Virus record (IMG/VR): IMGVR_UViG_3300025154_000052
Span: 32,001 to 96,000 of that record
Length of the DNA stretch: 64,000 bases
Direction: 5' to 3' (one strand)
Source of the DNA: a virus
The notes below the pieces were generated by a model that was not told the DNA's origin, did not search any database, and saw only the letters and a list, made by a program, of their open reading frames with translations. This document shows positions 22,590 to 41,701 of this stretch, one piece after another (the stretch's first letter is position 1; the number at the start of each line of letters is the position of its first letter). The translations under genes were made by a program, and so were the position numbers.

Positions 22590-23702
22590 GTGGAGTTCTA
22601 CATCACGAAGAAAGTGTTTGAGCGGGCACTGGCTGAAGTAGTGCCTTTCATGGACATCAAGAATACCATCTCCAGGTTGTCGATGGCGCGGCTCGAGTTG
22701 AGCCAGGATGGTCTGACGATATCGGGCACTGATATGGAGATGGGATTCTCGAATCGGTACGAGGCCAGGTGCATTCTCCCCGGCGTCCTGCTTCTCGGTG
22801 GACGCCAATTGCTCGAGATCATCAAGGCTCTTCCCAACAAGGAGGTTCACGTCCGGGAGCTCGACAACTGGTGGATTGAGATCGTCTGCGGTAAGAGCTA
22901 TTTCAAGTTGGCTGGCCTGGACTCTACAGGCTATCCGGAGAGTCCAAAACTGGCCGGCGAGGATGTCACGCTGCTCAGCATTGGCGCCTCCAGGCTGGCT
23001 GACATGATCGATGATACCATCGTCAGTGTGGCCACCGATGACTCACGGTACGGGCTCAACGGCGCCTTCCTCGAGTCCGGCAACGACGACGACAAACACT
23101 TCGTCCGCATGGTGTCCACGGACGGACACCGGCTGACGCTCTACCACTCCGCCATGGACGCGCCGACCGGTGAATGGCTGCTTCCCCGCGTCGGCTTGAA
23201 ACTGCTCCAGAACTGGCTGCGTGGTGTGTCCGCCGATGTGGAGTTGTGTCTCGACTCCCGGACGCTCTCTATCAGACACGGGGATGTGTGCGTATGGATG
23301 CGGCTGTTGGAAGGCGACTTCCCCGACTATCGCCAGGTGATCCCTCAACGGTTCACCCGCACCGCTGAAGTGTCTCGAAGCGATCTCCTGTCTTGCATGA
23401 AGCGGGTAGCGCTTCTCTCGAGCGAGAAGACCCACTCGGTGAAGATCGAGTTGGGTGATGAGGGGATCATCGTTTCGACATCCAACCCGGATCTGGGGGA
23501 GTGTCGCGAGTCCGTTGACGCGACAGTATCGAAGCCTGATGGCGGGTTCTCCATCGGCGTGAACGCTCGGTACATGGTGGATCGACTCGCCAAGAGCACC
23601 GCAGTCCAAGTGACGCTCCGACTCCAGGATTCACTCAACCCGATCACCATCGTCGATGGCTCCGACACGATCGCAGTGATCATGCCAATGCGGCTTGACT
23701 GA
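22590..23702 (+). CDS. dnaN: DNA polymerase III beta sliding clamp
   Basis: SGTDME, STDGHRL, LLEGDFPDYRQVIP, GVNARYM, C-terminal VIMPMRL. Confidence 0.96.
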   Translation: MEFYITKKVFERALAEVVPFMDIKNTISRLSMARLELSQDGLTISGTDMEMGFSNRYEARCILPGVLLLGGRQLLEIIKALPNKEVHVRELDNWWIEIVCGKSYFKLAGLDSTGYPESPKLAGEDVTLLSIGASRLADMIDDTIVSVATDDSRYGLNGAFLESGNDDDKHFVRMVSTDGHRLTLYHSAMDAPTGEWLLPRVGLKLLQNWLRGVSADVELCLDSRTLSIRHGDVCVWMRLLEGDFPDYRQVIPQRFTRTAEVSRSDLLSCMKRVALLSSEKTHSVKIELGDEGIIVSTSNPDLGECRESVDATVSKPDGGFSIGVNARYMVDRLAKSTAVQVTLRLQDSLNPITIVDGSDTIAVIMPMRLD

Positions 23703-30293: not shown

Positions 30294-30944
30294 CTACTTG
30301 TGATGCCCCCACATTAAAGGGGTCTCTAGCGCTTTTGCAATACTCCAGCCTCTTTTAAGCCGTGCGGAGATACAATCCGATCTAAGTCCATATCTTTCCG
30401 CCCATTCACTCAAACAGAGCGTCTCGCCATTGAACTCCATACGTCTATTGCTACGCATGTTCCTCGTTTGTGTTGTTATCGTGGCCCATCGACAATTACC
30501 AGGTTCGTAGTTTCCATTGACGTCGATTCGATCTAGAGTACTATCATTTGGCCTAGGCCCCATGTCTGACAGAAACGCTTTGAAACTGGCCAACCAGTTT
30601 TCGCAAATTGAGATGCCACGGCCACCATAATTGTGGAACTCGGGGTCGTAAACATTTGTGCAGCGTGCTTTCATGCTAAGCCATGACGAGTACTCTGGCG
30701 TGCTATGACCTCCTCGTTTAGCTCCGTGCGTTATGTTCCAGTTGGAGTGCATTTCCTGTCTCAGGCAACCGCAGGATTGACTGTCACCGCTGGTTAGCAC
30801 ATGCTTCGGGAGTTGACGCTCTATACCGCATTCACATTTCACATGCCATAGTTGTACCCTTGCTGGCGAGCGTTGTCCTTTGCCTAATACGGTCCATCGA
30901 CCGAACTTAGATCCAATAAAATTGGTAAGGTCATACTTTGGCAT
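30294..30944 (-). mobile_element. Free-standing HNH homing endonuclease gene
   Basis: YGGRGI.IC..W..SF..F..DMG.RP...TLDRID.NGNY.P.NCRWAT; visibly AT-richer than its flanks; own promoter TTCTCA-N17-TATACT at 30980-31008. Confidence 0.85.
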
Positions 30945-31009
30945 AATGTGGTTCCCATGTAAGTAGTGATACTGTGTATAGTATAGCATCAACAGAACAT
31001 AATGAGAAG

Positions 31010-31816
31010 CTACTCCGTGTAGGAGAACTTCGGATAAGGCAGGGCGGTCCAGTGCCTATCGACATGTCGCCTATCACGCCGATTCAGCACCCATGCATAC
31101 TTGTGGTTTCCCGGGTGTCTGAGCGGCCTGGTAAGCTTCGGAAGCCAGTAGTTGAGCCATACGTCAGAAGGCTCGAACAGTGGCCCCTGATAGGCTGTGG
31201 CGCCATGTTTTTCGAGGAGGGCGCAACTGTACTTCCACCCACGCTCGAGACTACGAATTTTGGAGATCGCACGGTCGCTCATGACGGTGCCGTCTGGCAA
31301 GAGTCTTAGCCGGCGAGATGTCCCCCTGCCCAGGTAGGTTGCGTTATGCCCTTGGTATATTCCCCCGATGTGGCCCGCGAACACATGGTGTCCGTCGATA
31401 GATTCTCGAGGCATAGGGTCGCTAAACGACAGCACCCCGACCATATCCCTCTTCCGAAGCAACTCCCAGCACCTGGCCAACATCCAAGTTTCACCATTCC
31501 CAGGAACATCGTCCAGAAGGACGAAGCGTCCGAGCTCGACGGATTGAAGTCGCTCCCCCGGAAAAATGGAGAGCAACCTGTCATTCGTCGGGTGGGAGAA
31601 CACCGCTACGCCAACCAGAGATCCAGCACGGTACAGACCGAACCTGAAGCGTGCCGCTGGATAACTGGCGCTGTAGTGATGGGTCTCTACGAAGGCTCGA
31701 GCAATTGTGTCACCGGGGATCTCAGCCACCTCGTAGTGGCTGGTGTTGATGACTTCATCTGCGGGACGATACACGCCTCTGCGTTCCCGCCAGCGCTGCG
31801 CTACCGCTGTGATCAC
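31010..31816 (-). CDS. Mom-like (GNAT) DNA modification protein
   Basis: FVETHHYS, GVAVF, VELGRFVL, GETWMLAR, LSFSDP, GHIGGIYQ. Confidence 0.8.
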   Translation of the reverse strand: MITAVAQRWRERRGVYRPADEVINTSHYEVAEIPGDTIARAFVETHHYSASYPAARFRFGLYRAGSLVGVAVFSHPTNDRLLSIFPGERLQSVELGRFVLLDDVPGNGETWMLARCWELLRKRDMVGVLSFSDPMPRESIDGHHVFAGHIGGIYQGHNATYLGRGTSRRLRLLPDGTVMSDRAISKIRSLERGWKYSCALLEKHGATAYQGPLFEPSDVWLNYWLPKLTRPLRHPGNHKYAWVLNRRDRRHVDRHWTALPYPKFSYTE

Positions 31817-32034: not shown

Positions 32035-32396
32035 TTTTCCTCCCGGGTCGATTCGATCCGATCACAGGTTCGGCAGAGCGCCAGCCCGTCATAGCGCTCA
32101 TGAGTCTTGACCGTACTGTCCACATTGAGCGGGACGGTACGAGCCGTGATGGGACGGTTACAACGAGGGCAATGATCGTTGGGTACCGGGCCCACCCAGC
32201 GACAGCCGATGAAGTCCATGTAGATGGGGACGACGGCCTGGAGCGCATCGTCCATGGGCTCACCCGGGCACTCAGTAGGCAGACTGAAGTCCTCCAGCCC
32301 GTCACACACCCTGCAATGGTGGACGTGCCCATCACAGTACGGGCAGTTCCCGGGACTGCAACACTGGCCCTCACATTTGTGCCAAATGTGGTTCAC
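32031..32396 (-). CDS. Cys-rich hypothetical protein
   Basis: GTGA overlap; CRVCDG...LPTECPG. Confidence 0.55.
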   Translation of the reverse strand: MNHIWHKCEGQCCSPGNCPYCDGHVHHCRVCDGLEDFSLPTECPGEPMDDALQAVVPIYMDFIGCRWVGPVPNDHCPRCNRPITARTVPLNVDSTVKTHERYDGLALCRTCDRIESTREEK

Positions 32397-33208
32397 GCCA
32401 GCACCTCCACCACGATAAGTGTGAGATTGTCGGAGGGGTCGCATTCGGCCAGCCGCATGCTGGAATCAGCAACCGAATGACCTACCAGTCGACGACCGAT
32501 CTCGTCGTCGTCGAGTTTCCCATGCAGTCCATCGCTGCACAGAAGGAACCGGTCGTGTGGCTCAACGCGGATAGTGGAGACGTCGGGAATCCCGTCGCCA
32601 CTACTGCAACCGATGAGCCGCCCGAGCCGGTGCCCGATGCCGTGGTCGATGGTCAGCCTGTGCAGTTTTCCCCACCGCGCCAGGTAGCAGCGGGAGTCCC
32701 CGATGTGAGCGATAGTGGCCTTGTAGCGACCGTCAAAAAGCGACAGTCGCAGTGCTACGGCTGTCGTGCCCGGTGCCTTGGACCATCCCTCACGGGGAAT
32801 CGCCTTGACCGCTTCGTTTGCCCGGCGAAAACCGAACCGCAGATTGGGCGCGCCGGAGATATGCTCGACCGCTACTCGGGAAGCCTCCTCCCCTTTGGCA
32901 TGTCCTCCCATCCCATCGGCCACAATGAATAAGCCGGTAGTACTGTCAGTGTGAAAAGCGTCTTCCTGGTTCTCACGCTCGCCAAGAAGATTCTCCGTCG
33001 ACACATCCAGGAACATAGTGTTGGGATTTCTCAGGGCGTAGACATTGTCCTTCACCCCGAGAACTCCCTGCGATGCCAGGGAGTCGATGGTCTTGGTGTC
33101 GACCCAGCACCGCTCGTCTGGGCTAGAGAGAAGGACAAGGTTTGCCTTGACCAGCCGACAAGGTCCGCGTCGGATCAACTGCAAGGCCGCGGCAGCATTC
33201 GAGTGCAT
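32393..33208 (-). CDS. PP2C/PPM-family Ser/Thr protein phosphatase
   Basis: RENQED, VADGMGG, GTT, HIGDSR, TIDH, LCSDGL, DNLT. Confidence 0.93.
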   Translation of the reverse strand: MHSNAAAALQLIRRGPCRLVKANLVLLSSPDERCWVDTKTIDSLASQGVLGVKDNVYALRNPNTMFLDVSTENLLGERENQEDAFHTDSTTGLFIVADGMGGHAKGEEASRVAVEHISGAPNLRFGFRRANEAVKAIPREGWSKAPGTTAVALRLSLFDGRYKATIAHIGDSRCYLARWGKLHRLTIDHGIGHRLGRLIGCSSGDGIPDVSTIRVEPHDRFLLCSDGLHGKLDDDEIGRRLVGHSVADSSMRLAECDPSDNLTLIVVEVLA

Positions 33209-33736: not shown

Positions 33737-34051
33737 CTAATCCTTGATCTTGGGCACTCGCTCAGCGGGGAGTGTATCGGCTGGGATGATGGCCATGCGC
33801 TCGATGGAGACGTAGTTGTCACCCTGGCTGCTGTTGTGGATCAACTCGTACAGCGCCCGTGAGAGCGACATCCGGCAGGCGTGATCTGGCCGGTTGTACC
33901 ACTCGCCATGCCTGAACCACATGTTGAGTAGTCCATTCGTCGCTCAAGAAGGCCGATACTTCTCCTGTGAAGCCGGCGCAGTATCGGCCTTCTTGAGCGC
34001 TACCAGTGCTGCTTCAGCGGTTTGGAACTGGATGATCTCACGCCTCTTCAT
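33737..34051 (-). pseudogene. 105-codon frame interrupted by one in-frame TGA inside a perfect inverted repeat
   Basis: ATG at 34051, TGA at 33946-33944, same frame continues to TAG at 33737. Confidence 0.45.
33941..33999. repeat. Perfect 20-bp inverted repeat with a 19-nt loop
   Basis: CGCTCAAGAAGGCCGATACT (33941-33960) and AGTATCGGCCTTCTTGAGCG (33980-33999). Confidence 0.9.
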
Positions 34052-35549
34052 ACTCCTCAACCTCGTGAATGTTTGTGCCGAGCAGACCCAGTTGGGCCTG
34101 CTCGCGAATCTGGTTCACCTCTCTCAGATACGCGAGTGCGTCTTCTTCGTTCACGTACTTGGTGCGCACGAGTACGTTCTCAAGTGCGTCATACAGGCCC
34201 GCACGTCGGACGGAAGTTCTGTACGACGCTTCAACGTGAAGCAGGTTCCGAATTCGCTCGTACTCCATGGGGTCGCTGCAGCACTCCTTGAGAAGCCCCA
34301 GCGCGTCTTTCTCAAAAGGAATGTCTACAGGTCCGAGAATGTCTCGGTCTGGATAGGGATGTCCAATCTCTTGCTCGTAGATACCGGGTAGGAGGTCTTC
34401 TATCTCGTGTTTGTCGAGCACCCAGATACGGCGGATTTCCCGAAGTTCATCCATGGAGATCAACTCGAGCCGTTCGCCGGCCGGTGCGTATTCGCTCACC
34501 TCGCGTTGAGTGCGCAGGAGTTTCCGTAGCCAGTCGGCTCGAGCCTGTTGAGTATATGGACCGGGGATCGTTCGGTCGTGGAAGAGTTGCACGCGGCCAT
34601 TCATGCGCCTGAAGTCGCGCAGATGGCGATCCTTCTGCATGGCCAGATCGTCACGCAAGCCAAGCAGTGGTTCCATCCACTCCTTTTCCGTGTCGTGCTG
34701 GATCATGGCAGCCATCGACTTGTCTTTTTCGACCAGCGTGCAGACCCAGCACCCGAACCGGCTCGAGCCGCATGACGGCGTTCCCGTATCGACTACCAGT
34801 GGACACTCTCCGGAGTCAGATCCCGCCGCGTACATCCTGAACAGTGCCCGGTTGTGCCACCCCCACGGGTTCGGCACCTGGAAGAGGAACGTCCACACAT
34901 CGTCGTTAGACCAGTCCTCGATGGGCGAGTAGACCCATGAGCCGGGTAGCGACTTGTTCGGGCTCAGGCGGTCACGTATACGCCCTTTCTCGGCTGCCTC
35001 CATGGTACGCCGGCGACTCGCACTCTCAGCCTTGCGAGTACCCAGGCACAGGATGGCCTCACCATGACGGCTGACGACGTTGGTGATGAACTTGTTGGAT
35101 GGCTTGATCTTCAGCCGTTCGGTACACCAGCGCATACCGGGCATGCGAGGGGAGCAATAGCCCTTGCCGATCAGGCATACCCAGAAGCTATCAAGCAGCT
35201 CCGGAGTGAGTTTGTGTGGCTTGATGGGCATTCCCTGCTTGTCAGCAGCAACGCCCATCTGCTCGAGCGACTTACCAACCCAGGCAGCGACCACCGGGTT
35301 CTCGACAAGCGTGTCTGTGCTGATGACGTGGACTGGCTTCTTGATGTCGGCTCGAGGCAGTTTGGCCAGCGCCGTCCAGACGAGTTGTAGTGTCGCAGAG
35401 CTGTCCTTGCCTCCGCTATAGCCCAACACCCATGGAGTGCCATCCTCGAGGTACAGGGTGCGGATCTCCTCCTGCAGGTCAGCGATGGACTGGGCCAGGC
35501 TTACCTTGTCAGACGATTCTTCTTGTTGCAGAAGCGATAACTGACTCAT
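34038..35549 (-). CDS. dndC: DNA phosphorothioation protein DndC
   Basis: PWVLGYSGGKDS, STDTLVENP, RWCTERLKIKP, GTRKAES, SPIEDWSNDDVW, GECPLVVD..TPSCG.SRFGCWVCT, PGPY. Confidence 0.92.
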   Translation of the reverse strand: MSQLSLLQQEESSDKVSLAQSIADLQEEIRTLYLEDGTPWVLGYSGGKDSSATLQLVWTALAKLPRADIKKPVHVISTDTLVENPVVAAWVGKSLEQMGVAADKQGMPIKPHKLTPELLDSFWVCLIGKGYCSPRMPGMRWCTERLKIKPSNKFITNVVSRHGEAILCLGTRKAESASRRRTMEAAEKGRIRDRLSPNKSLPGSWVYSPIEDWSNDDVWTFLFQVPNPWGWHNRALFRMYAAGSDSGECPLVVDTGTPSCGSSRFGCWVCTLVEKDKSMAAMIQHDTEKEWMEPLLGLRDDLAMQKDRHLRDFRRMNGRVQLFHDRTIPGPYTQQARADWLRKLLRTQREVSEYAPAGERLELISMDELREIRRIWVLDKHEIEDLLPGIYEQEIGHPYPDRDILGPVDIPFEKDALGLLKECCSDPMEYERIRNLLHVEASYRTSVRRAGLYDALENVLVRTKYVNEEDALAYLREVNQIREQAQLGLLGTNIHEVEEYEEA

Positions 35550-40708: not shown

Positions 40709-41701
40709 TCATTTCAGGTTAAATAGGCTGATCTGTTGAGCTTTTCGCGAATCAGGGATGGGTTCGCGTGAGCTGATAACTACTTGAGATAGGGATGGCT
40801 CCACCACCGGCTCGAGCCGGTGGATGGTGTCGAGAAGGTTGCGGAAGCGCCCTACCTGCTCGGTCAGGAGTCGTGTGTTGTCGAAGATGTCGTCAGGAAT
40901 AGGGACCAGCCCCCATGGCACATAGAGCGCCATGTTGATACGAGATGCCAGAAGCACCGTCGTGTCAATATCTGCCCCCGTAAGCCGCATAGTGTAGTTG
41001 GAGGCGGACAGAAGCATTCGCCCAGTGCCACAGCACGGGTCAAGCGTCCGTAACGCCCGGGTATCGCCTGCTTGCCGAGCGTCATGGAAGACCATTTCGG
41101 CCTTGGCATTGCACACGCCTTGGGGAGTCGGGAAGAATGCGTTCGGCCCGCCCCCGAACCGCTGGGAGATGAGTGTTCCCAGATAGTCGCCAGCGGCCAC
41201 CAGAAGATGACGCAGGTTCACCTCACGGTAGAGTGTTTCGCAGACGTTCTCTCGAAGTTCAGGAGGGCTGTCATGAACGCCCAGCGACCAGCCCAGCCAC
41301 TCGAGCAGCGATACCAGCGCCCGCCATCCGCCCCCGTCACGCTCAATAATGGACACCCATCGCTGAACCTGAGCGAAGGCAGGCTTAGCCGCTTCCTGGT
41401 AGGGTTGATGGAAGGTCACCCATGGGATGCCCTCAGACGGGAGCACCCCATGCATGAGCGTGTCAATGAGATAGCCCCATCGCTGCGGGATTGCCGGCGC
41501 ATTGCAGGTCTGGAGCAGAATGACGTAGTAGAGCGACCAGCCCTTGTACATCCATGGCCGTGGTGTGTCTTCAAAGGAAGGCATGCGCCCATGAGTGCGA
41601 CAGAACGCCAGCCATTCAGGAGATATAAGCCCAGTACCAGTCATAGCAGCGTCAGCGTCCACAATCCACCCAGCAAGATGGTCAGTCGATACGCGCACCA
41701 T
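40709..41701 (-). CDS. N6-methyltransferase-like (HsdM-type N-terminal half) protein lacking motif IV
   Basis: FFPTP, LDPCCGTGRMLL, GADID..V....INM; no NPP(F/Y) motif. Confidence 0.7.
   Translation of the reverse strand: MVRVSTDHLAGWIVDADAAMTGTGLISPEWLAFCRTHGRMPSFEDTPRPWMYKGWSLYYVILLQTCNAPAIPQRWGYLIDTLMHGVLPSEGIPWVTFHQPYQEAAKPAFAQVQRWVSIIERDGGGWRALVSLLEWLGWSLGVHDSPPELRENVCETLYREVNLRHLLVAAGDYLGTLISQRFGGGPNAFFPTPQGVCNAKAEMVFHDARQAGDTRALRTLDPCCGTGRMLLSASNYTMRLTGADIDTTVLLASRINMALYVPWGLVPIPDDIFDNTRLLTEQVGRFRNLLDTIHRLEPVVEPSLSQVVISSREPIPDSRKAQQISLFNLK

Follow-up and report, generated by a model that had tools for sequence, protein, structure and literature searches.

Introduction

DndC, an iron-sulfur sulfurtransferase that uses ATP, introduces phosphorothioate (PT) into the backbone of DNA; its canonical representatives are the DndC and DptC proteins of the dndBCDE(-FGH) systems of Streptomyces lividans and Salmonella Cerro 87. 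In the PT field, it is not settled how this writing is directed to particular times and places, nor why only a fraction of sites becomes modified. Here, we analyzed computationally a DndC encoded by a large groundwater phage, known from a linear 137,577-bp IMG/VR virus record (IMGVR_UViG_3300025154_000052) that is estimated to be 87% complete; bases 32001 to 96000 of this record form the 64,000-nucleotide stretch that we call the window, in whose numbering coordinates are given unless stated otherwise. The gene, dndC (34038..35549, minus strand; 503 amino acids plus stop), specifies P0001, a full-length DndC orthologue that stands without dnd partner genes and whose N-terminal tip, predicted to be disordered, carries a pentapeptide, QLSLL, of the form by which other proteins bind the beta sliding clamp. 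As our best, although tentative, explanation we propose that P0001 is a catalytically competent solo phage DndC, most likely docked onto the clamp via QLSLL and acting on phage DNA at replication; its sequence features suggest that the phage may mark its own DNA as it is copied.

Two published anti-Dnd mechanisms form the nearest backdrop. In the first, a Vibrio phage protein in which a PAPS domain is fused to a Dam methylase confers escape from Dnd (Piel et al., bioRxiv 10.1101/2021.05.05.442762; catalogued as adnd_p0020); in the second, a kinase inactivates DndFGH (PMC12345140). The Vibrio phage protein resembles P0001 in being a phage-encoded member of the PAPS-reductase superfamily that is tied to Dnd-type defense, but going by its description it consists of a PAPS domain of ~170 amino acids joined to the methylase, whereas P0001 is a full-length DndC without a methylase fusion. 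An earlier, sequence-only reading of this DNA had put forward an anti-PT-defense strategy not known to have been described; with the published PAPS-domain factor (bioRxiv 10.1101/2021.05.05.442762), such a strategy is not entirely without precedent.

PT writers of the PAPS-reductase type that work with partners other than DndD and DndE are found in BREX type 4 (BrxP) and in Ssp (SspD) (PMC12914056, PMC12839542), and this difference in partners indicates that the catalytic module can change them. Both SspD and BrxP are without the cysteine pair unique to DndC and possess extra ferredoxin-like or DUF4007 modules (PMC12839542). P0001, in contrast, scores as a DndC and has no such modules, and its neighbors—a radical SAM gene, orphans, a PP2C, and a Mom-like gene—set the locus apart from SspBC and BREX type 4 loci.

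On the side of the replisome, clamp clients with motifs of the QL[SD]LF type include Pol II, Pol IV, Pol V, and MutS, and Hda, with its N-terminal QLSLPL, is a precedent for the N-terminal position of such a motif. A phage protein with a clamp-binding motif is MuC of phage Mu (PMC12867686). P0001 is like all these clients in that a pentapeptide of this kind stands at a disordered terminus; none of them, however, is a DNA-modifying sulfurtransferase, and binding by P0001 is putative. The closest functional analogy is eukaryotic DNMT1-PCNA, in which a DNA-marking enzyme is tethered to a sliding clamp and new DNA thus receives its marks during synthesis, although the proteins, the motif (a PIP box), and the chemistry are unrelated. 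Our literature search found no paper on full-length solo DndCs in phages and none linking DndC to the clamp.

An intact DndC without its partners

As judged from its sequence, P0001 is a true, intact, and solo DndC. It reaches 597.5 bits on the NCBIfam model TIGR03183 for DndC, an equivalog-level match at about twice the cut-off of 290.4, and 610 bits on NF005316 (cut-off, 536). Pfam assigns PAPS_reduct, and with Pfam and NCBIfam returning only PAPS_reduct and DndC, no methylase domain and no ferredoxin-type or DUF4007 module was found in the 503 amino acids. The TIGR03183 match covers residues 26 to 461 and a 20-sequence alignment reaches residue 471, so that the DndC-specific C-terminal half is present. 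All columns that are invariant among 20 DndCs are retained, including the SGGKDS PP-loop (S45 to S50) and C142, C249, C260, C267, and C270. Identity is ~60% to thousands of bacterial DndCs, and P0001 is closer to none of them. The AlphaFold2 model (mean pLDDT, 66) has a PP-loop/PAPS-reductase fold, with FAD synthase and PAPS/APS reductases as its best PDB matches and the 4Fe-4S sulfurtransferases NcsA, TtuA, and LarE also among the matches; a sequence search of the PDB found no DndC structure. These data bear out the sequence-only reading in its description of a full-length DndC with PP-loop and Fe-S cysteines.

Likeness to canonical DndC/DptC thus takes in the equivalog match, the level of identity, the PP-loop, the cluster cysteines, and the C-terminal half. 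The differences are that P0001 is phage-borne, that its genome shows no dndD, dndE, dndB, or dndA, that a motif near the N terminus is replaced and QLSLL stands at the tip (see below), and that it has derived substitutions in common with only one other protein, P0112. Profile searches for DndD, DndE, DndA, and DndB gave no match at an E value of ≤1 in the whole 137,577-bp record, an absence that is not absolute at 87% completeness. The absence of dndA, dndB, dndD, and dndE from the window, which had been seen before, therefore holds for the rest of the record too, where a search for dndD and dndE had been proposed.

A candidate clamp-binding motif

The start of P0001 has support from two sides: the dndC start overlaps the stop of the upstream open reading frame (ORF) in an ATGA, and public gene calls on nine contigs give the identical 503-amino-acid product, in agreement with the N terminus, MSQLSLL, that had been read initially. 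An alternative ATG lies 9 nucleotides upstream, with its GGAG only 2 nucleotides away. QLSLL occupies residues 3 to 7 (35529..35543, minus strand) and is a strict match to QL[SD]L[FL], which makes it a candidate N-terminal beta-clamp-binding motif; a second clamp-motif-like pentapeptide, QLGLL, is located at residues 486 to 490 (34080..34094, minus strand) in the variable C-terminal tail. Both fit the consensus pentapeptide, with L rather than F as the fifth residue. In the model, residues 1 to 15 have a pLDDT of <50, and the first helix begins at residue 18 with no secondary structure before it.

The N terminus had been described as an addition. In the 20-sequence alignment, however, it is no longer than the N termini of bacterial DndCs; what sets it apart is that P0001 is without the short [SAPT][AVSPL]F (“SAF”) motif that precedes the first helix in 104 of 119 DndCs, so that the N terminus has been remodeled, with this motif replaced, and not extended. 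No discussion of the SAF motif, or of motifs in DndC C-terminal tails, was found in the literature search.

In the greedy set of 210 ORFs (43,096 amino acids), the strict pattern QL[SD]L[FL] has two matches versus an expectation of 0.15, one at the DndC N terminus and the other at the extreme C terminus of the orphan P0243, two genes downstream in the same array; for a strict match within ≤10 residues of any terminus, the expectation is ~0.015. Of the eight matches to the looser pattern Q[LMIVA]x[LM][FL], four fall within 10 amino acids of a terminus (binomial P = 0.005); one more is QLGLL in the tail of DndC. ORFs with a terminal looser motif amount to 4 of 210 here compared to 12 of 2,182 in other phage loci (Fisher P = 0.045).

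The tree places P0112 with P0001 (support, 0.95) as its only well-supported sister, and the two proteins have the derived signatures WVCLIG, FLFQ, and NRALFxMYA in common. P0112 starts with MQLELL (QLxLL), followed by a proline-rich linker and then by the canonical SAF motif, and since motif and linker precede SAF, the motif of P0112 is a clear add-on. This sister lineage with an N-terminal motif, P0112/P0368, is a single one. The N-terminal motif was found in none of the 118 other database DndCs (from a set of 120) and in none of ~190 other DndCs with a reliable start; among 115 further DndCs from genomes and metagenomes, in which the start is that of the longest ORF only, one has a motif in its N-terminal region, which is the level of chance. 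Signature-pattern scans of IMG/VR and JGI metagenomes yielded no further members of the P0001/P0112 subclade, WVCLIGKGY was seen again only in three phage DndCs treated below (L006 to L008), and an alignment-based metagenome scan for the subclade returned ordinary DndCs only.

Clamp-type pentapeptides appear at the other end of DndCs as well. C-terminal tails contain Q[LMAV]x[LM][FLIM] in 18 of 120 DndCs (shuffled mean, 0.9; maximum, 4) and in 7 of 73 species genomes (shuffled mean, 0.37). The motifs in this minority of bacterial DndC tails are of the QLSLL, QLPLL, QLSLF, QMTLF, or QFDLF type (P0002 to P0120; L118 to L197).

A clamp to which P0001 could bind is encoded by the phage itself, as had been recognized in the first reading: the dnaN gene (22590..23702, plus strand; 370 amino acids), with a GTG start preceded by GGAG, scores 204 bits on TIGR00663. 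Its product retains conserved motifs of bacterial clamps, namely, TDGxRL, PDYxxV.P (P245 and V250), N325/Y328, and the C-terminal MPMR(L), which in the Escherichia coli clamp line the protein-binding cleft; among 40 aligned sequences, TDGxRL, P245, V250, N325, and the C-terminal MP(M)R show little or no variation. A DnaG primase is present, and no DnaE-type or PolA-type polymerase was detected in the 137.6-kb record. The host polymerase may be the partner of the phage clamp, or the clamp may serve mainly as a platform for other proteins.

Three further phage proteins end in clamp-type motifs. The orphan P0243 (33288..33734, minus strand; 148 amino acids) ends in the consensus pentapeptide, QLSLF*. 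A methyltransferase-like protein (40709..41701, minus strand; 330 amino acids) ends in QISLFNLK* and has a DPCCGTG motif-I-like stretch and a weak AviRa match (E value, 0.003). The third is a DpdA (PF23859, 232 bits) that ends in QMGLF* and lies ~4.9 kb past the end of the window, at 100874-101821 of the record (G000; equivalent to L198:2875-3822). The tail of this DpdA does not align to mycobacteriophage DpdAs (compared loci L282, L284, and L283). ELALF stands near the end of DpdA in phages Kashi_RDG1 and Dadosky, whose tails are otherwise different, and the DpdA of Puhltonio is tail-less. As far as these sequences go, a clamp-type tail motif may recur in DpdA.

Given the rarity of the motif, its terminal position, the comparison with other phages, the sister P0112, the bacterial tails, the conserved clamp, and the lack of a phage polymerase, we lean, by a modest degree, toward a functional clamp-binding motif at the DndC N terminus. 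The clamp-binding-like character once ascribed to the tip is therefore upheld insofar as the motif is rare, terminal, and present in P0112; binding itself stays putative.

Proposed clamp docking and its alternatives

With clamp docking as the preferred explanation, the history and action of P0001 would run as follows. The phage lineage would have acquired dndC long ago and kept it without dndA, dndB, dndD, and dndE. The disordered N-terminal tip would have lost SAF, and QLSLL would dock DndC onto the beta sliding clamp, be it the phage DnaN or that of the host. Docked DndC would work on phage DNA at the replication fork or right behind it, together with further putatively clamp-tagged modification proteins, that is, DpdA, the methyltransferase-like protein, and the orphan P0243. 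Sulfur would probably be supplied by the host IscS. Either a dnd-positive host or the clamp together with phage factors would provide what DndD and DndE contribute as ATPase and in DNA handling, and all this would serve to shield phage DNA from restriction, PT-based or other.

Several points weigh against this scenario. Some concern the chemistry: (i) in Streptomyces and Salmonella, genetics reportedly shows that DndC, DndD, and DndE are all required for PT; (ii) we know of no demonstrated activity of a solo DndC; (iii) the dnd-positive host is an assumption; and (iv) the common PT sites GAAC/GTTC are neither avoided nor enriched in the genome, with an uninformative ratio of 0.97. Others concern the motif: (v) it was noticed before testing, so that its statistics are partly post hoc; (vi) its enrichment over other phages is modest; (vii) it ends in L, whereas the consensus ends in F; (viii) its conservation among relatives comes from one sister lineage; and (ix) a third DndC sample, searched with a stricter tail pattern, gave 2 of 62, with no significant enrichment. 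Points vi to viii are also among those that favor an ordinary captured accessory gene, or one relying on host DndDE, in which neither QLSLL nor the other terminal pentapeptides bind any clamp; to these can be added that short motifs arise easily and that a grouping of P0001 with other solo phage DndCs is unsupported (0.07). We nevertheless consider this explanation unlikely, since, once a first strict match is given, the ~0.015 expected for a second, terminal one in the same array is small, four of the eight looser matches are terminal, the motif is located in a tip that is disordered in the model, and in P0112 the same motif clearly is an addition ahead of the proline-rich linker.

Because DndC, as currently known, depends on DndD and DndE, there are three possibilities: the host may supply both proteins, with the phage copy targeting or boosting PT on phage DNA during replication; both may be replaced by the clamp and phage factors; or the phage DndC may interfere with host Dnd. 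An anti-defense role of the phage DndC, which the sequence-only reading had suggested through recruitment of host DndDE/IscS or poisoning of the host complex, is plausible, and a published relative with such a role exists. One such role would be that of a decoy or poison, in which the phage DndC modifies no DNA and instead titrates or mis-assembles host DndD, DndE, and IscS, or DndFGH, thereby blocking PT-dependent restriction. This explanation finds support in the Vibrio phage PAPS-domain/Dam fusion that gives escape from Dnd (bioRxiv 10.1101/2021.05.05.442762; adnd_p0020), in the reported toxicity of overexpressed DndC plus DndD (review PMC12707154), in the solo state of dndC in the record, and in the sequence of P0001, which differs at 8 of 175 highly conserved positions compared to a median of 1 and has lost the conserved SAF motif. 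A decoy, however, needs neither a PP-loop nor cluster cysteines, and all of these are kept in P0001 and P0112 across ~40% divergence; nor would it account for the terminal motifs of DpdA, the methyltransferase-like protein, and P0243. Because the catalytic residues are all retained in both proteins, the comparison argues for a DndC that has kept its enzymatic activity, and we view a pure decoy as improbable.

Should the clamp-docked reading be true, a DndC without its former partners DndD and DndE but with a clamp tag would point to replication-coupled marking, much as by DNMT1 with PCNA, and would represent a phage route past PT-based restriction distinct from both the kinase that inactivates DndFGH and the PAPS-domain/Dam fusion, the two routes found in our literature search. 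Should the motif be inert, dndC would simply be a further accessory gene of a phage that has many modification genes already. For binding tests, the analysis supplies a 20-residue peptide with the putative motif and its matching clamp as candidate reagents.

Solo DndCs in other phages

The sequence-only reading had called for a survey of solo dndC in phages, and such genes do recur, often beside DpdA, methylases, or helicases. When IMG/VR was scanned by alignment, DndC relatives turned up on 33 contigs; among 29 records examined, DndC scores above the NCBIfam cut-off in 23, DndD in 3, and DndE in 1. Genomes of 75 kb (with direct terminal repeats), 92 kb, and 189 kb, complete or nearly so, are among the records without DndD and DndE, and the complete genomes with a solo DndC offer a set for asking whether DndC alone modifies DNA.

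In the complete 75-kb genome (L005; IMGVR_UViG_3300027985_001729), a Dam-type methylase, a DpdA, and the solo DndC lie in a row at L005:7976-11500, with the first two directly upstream of dndC. Its DndC is 57% identical to P0001 and has an N-terminal extension containing VSLPLF; no DndD, DndE, or DnaN was found in this genome. The neighbors of the solo DndC are DUF5131, a helicase, and DUF488 in L006 and a helicase and an N6/N4 methylase in L009. In the tree, the DndCs of L006 to L008 form a group (support, 0.999) with that of the cyanobacterium Moorena, with which they have the tail motif KQL[SA]WA[DN]LKF in common (L190/L191), and this grouping, together with the common tail motif, suggests that they may stem from a separate capture from cyanobacteria. 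The idea that all solo phage DndCs form one clade was rejected as unsupported (0.07), the tree showing at least two separate origins.

A bolder generalization, which we put forward as doubtful, is that this phage, some other phages, and a minority of bacteria couple DNA-marking enzymes to the replisome via clamp motifs. DndC, DpdA, the methyltransferase-like protein, and the orphan would all sit on the clamp, PT would be written without DndD and DndE, and the QLxL[FLI] tails of bacterial DndCs and the ELALF of mycobacteriophage DpdAs would be the same device. The phage DnaN, for its part, may be mainly a tool-belt for modification enzymes, because the record has no phage polymerase for it to serve.

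Gene neighborhood and other features

The array that contains dndC runs leftward in the order radical SAM gene, P0123, dndC, a 61-amino-acid ORF, P0243, PP2C phosphatase, two small ORFs, Mom-like gene, and HNH endonuclease. The radical SAM protein P0122 (35836..36666, minus strand; 276 amino acids; phrog_9298) has a CxxxCxxC at residues 92 to 99, and no second cluster-binding cysteine triad is evident in it; the nearest structures to its model are those of the methylthiotransferases RimO and MiaB. P0122 belongs to a very large, highly conserved, unnamed phage family, with >6,900 homologues at ~65% identity and a relative encoded in 356 IMG/VR loci. In the 80 closest of these 356 loci there is no conserved neighbor and never a DndC or P0123, and the P0122-type gene is absent from the 33 DndC-bearing IMG/VR loci. 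We therefore rejected the idea that the radical SAM gene, P0123, and dndC form a conserved module, the 80 closest radical SAM loci being stand-alone.

Between the radical SAM gene and dndC lies the orphan ORF P0123 (35546..35839, minus strand; 97 amino acids), called as a gene in public records; its start overlaps the radical SAM stop in a GTGA, and its stop provides the ATGA shared with the dndC start. No homologue was found among 1.8 billion representatives, and a ribbon-helix-helix look was noted by eye only. That P0123 could be a hidden DndE was rejected: there is no DndE profile match genome-wide, no PDB relative, and no homologue among those representatives.

The weakest rival explanation, a new phage-specific pathway in which DndC with the coupled radical SAM enzyme and small ORF, or DpdA, would install sulfur in bases or in the backbone in a form different from canonical Dnd PT, can appeal to the stop/start overlaps that join the three genes, to a radical SAM model nearest the sulfur-inserting RimO and MiaB, to the radical-SAM mechanism proposed for Dnd (review PMC12707154), to the DpdA of this phage, and to the solo DndC beside DpdA and a Dam-type methylase in the complete 75-kb phage, but it is quite unlikely in our view, given that the radical SAM family is so large and stand-alone (with neither DndC nor P0123 nearby in its 80 closest loci), that this radical SAM gene occurs in none of the DndC-bearing phage loci, that P0123 is an orphan, that the equivalog-level DndC match makes an unchanged reaction the simplest reading, and that tight gene packing is ordinary in phages.

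Downstream of dndC, the 61-amino-acid ORF (33737..33922, minus strand) has no family match and is an ORF only; P0243, which follows it, has no relatives in Pfam, PHROG, Atlas, or IMG/VR. A pentapeptide common to DndC and P0243, RMPGM, is written with different codons and was dismissed as chance. Farther along the array are the PP2C-type phosphatase (32393..33208, minus strand; PF13672, E value of 8.8e-10), the Mom-like DNA modification protein (31010..31816, minus strand; PF25680, 80 bits; phrog_1384), and, directly after the latter, the HNH endonuclease (30294..30992, minus strand). The third-position GC content of the HNH gene is 0.49, compared to about 0.65 to 0.7 in its neighbors, and this low value, together with the position right after the Mom-like gene, suggests that it may be a recent homing-type insertion.

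In the word statistics of the whole record, AGCT is strongly depleted, with 135 sites versus 442 expected, and GGCC has a ratio of 0.70. CTCGAG, conversely, is enriched, with 205 sites, whereas base composition predicts 42 and a Markov model 140.

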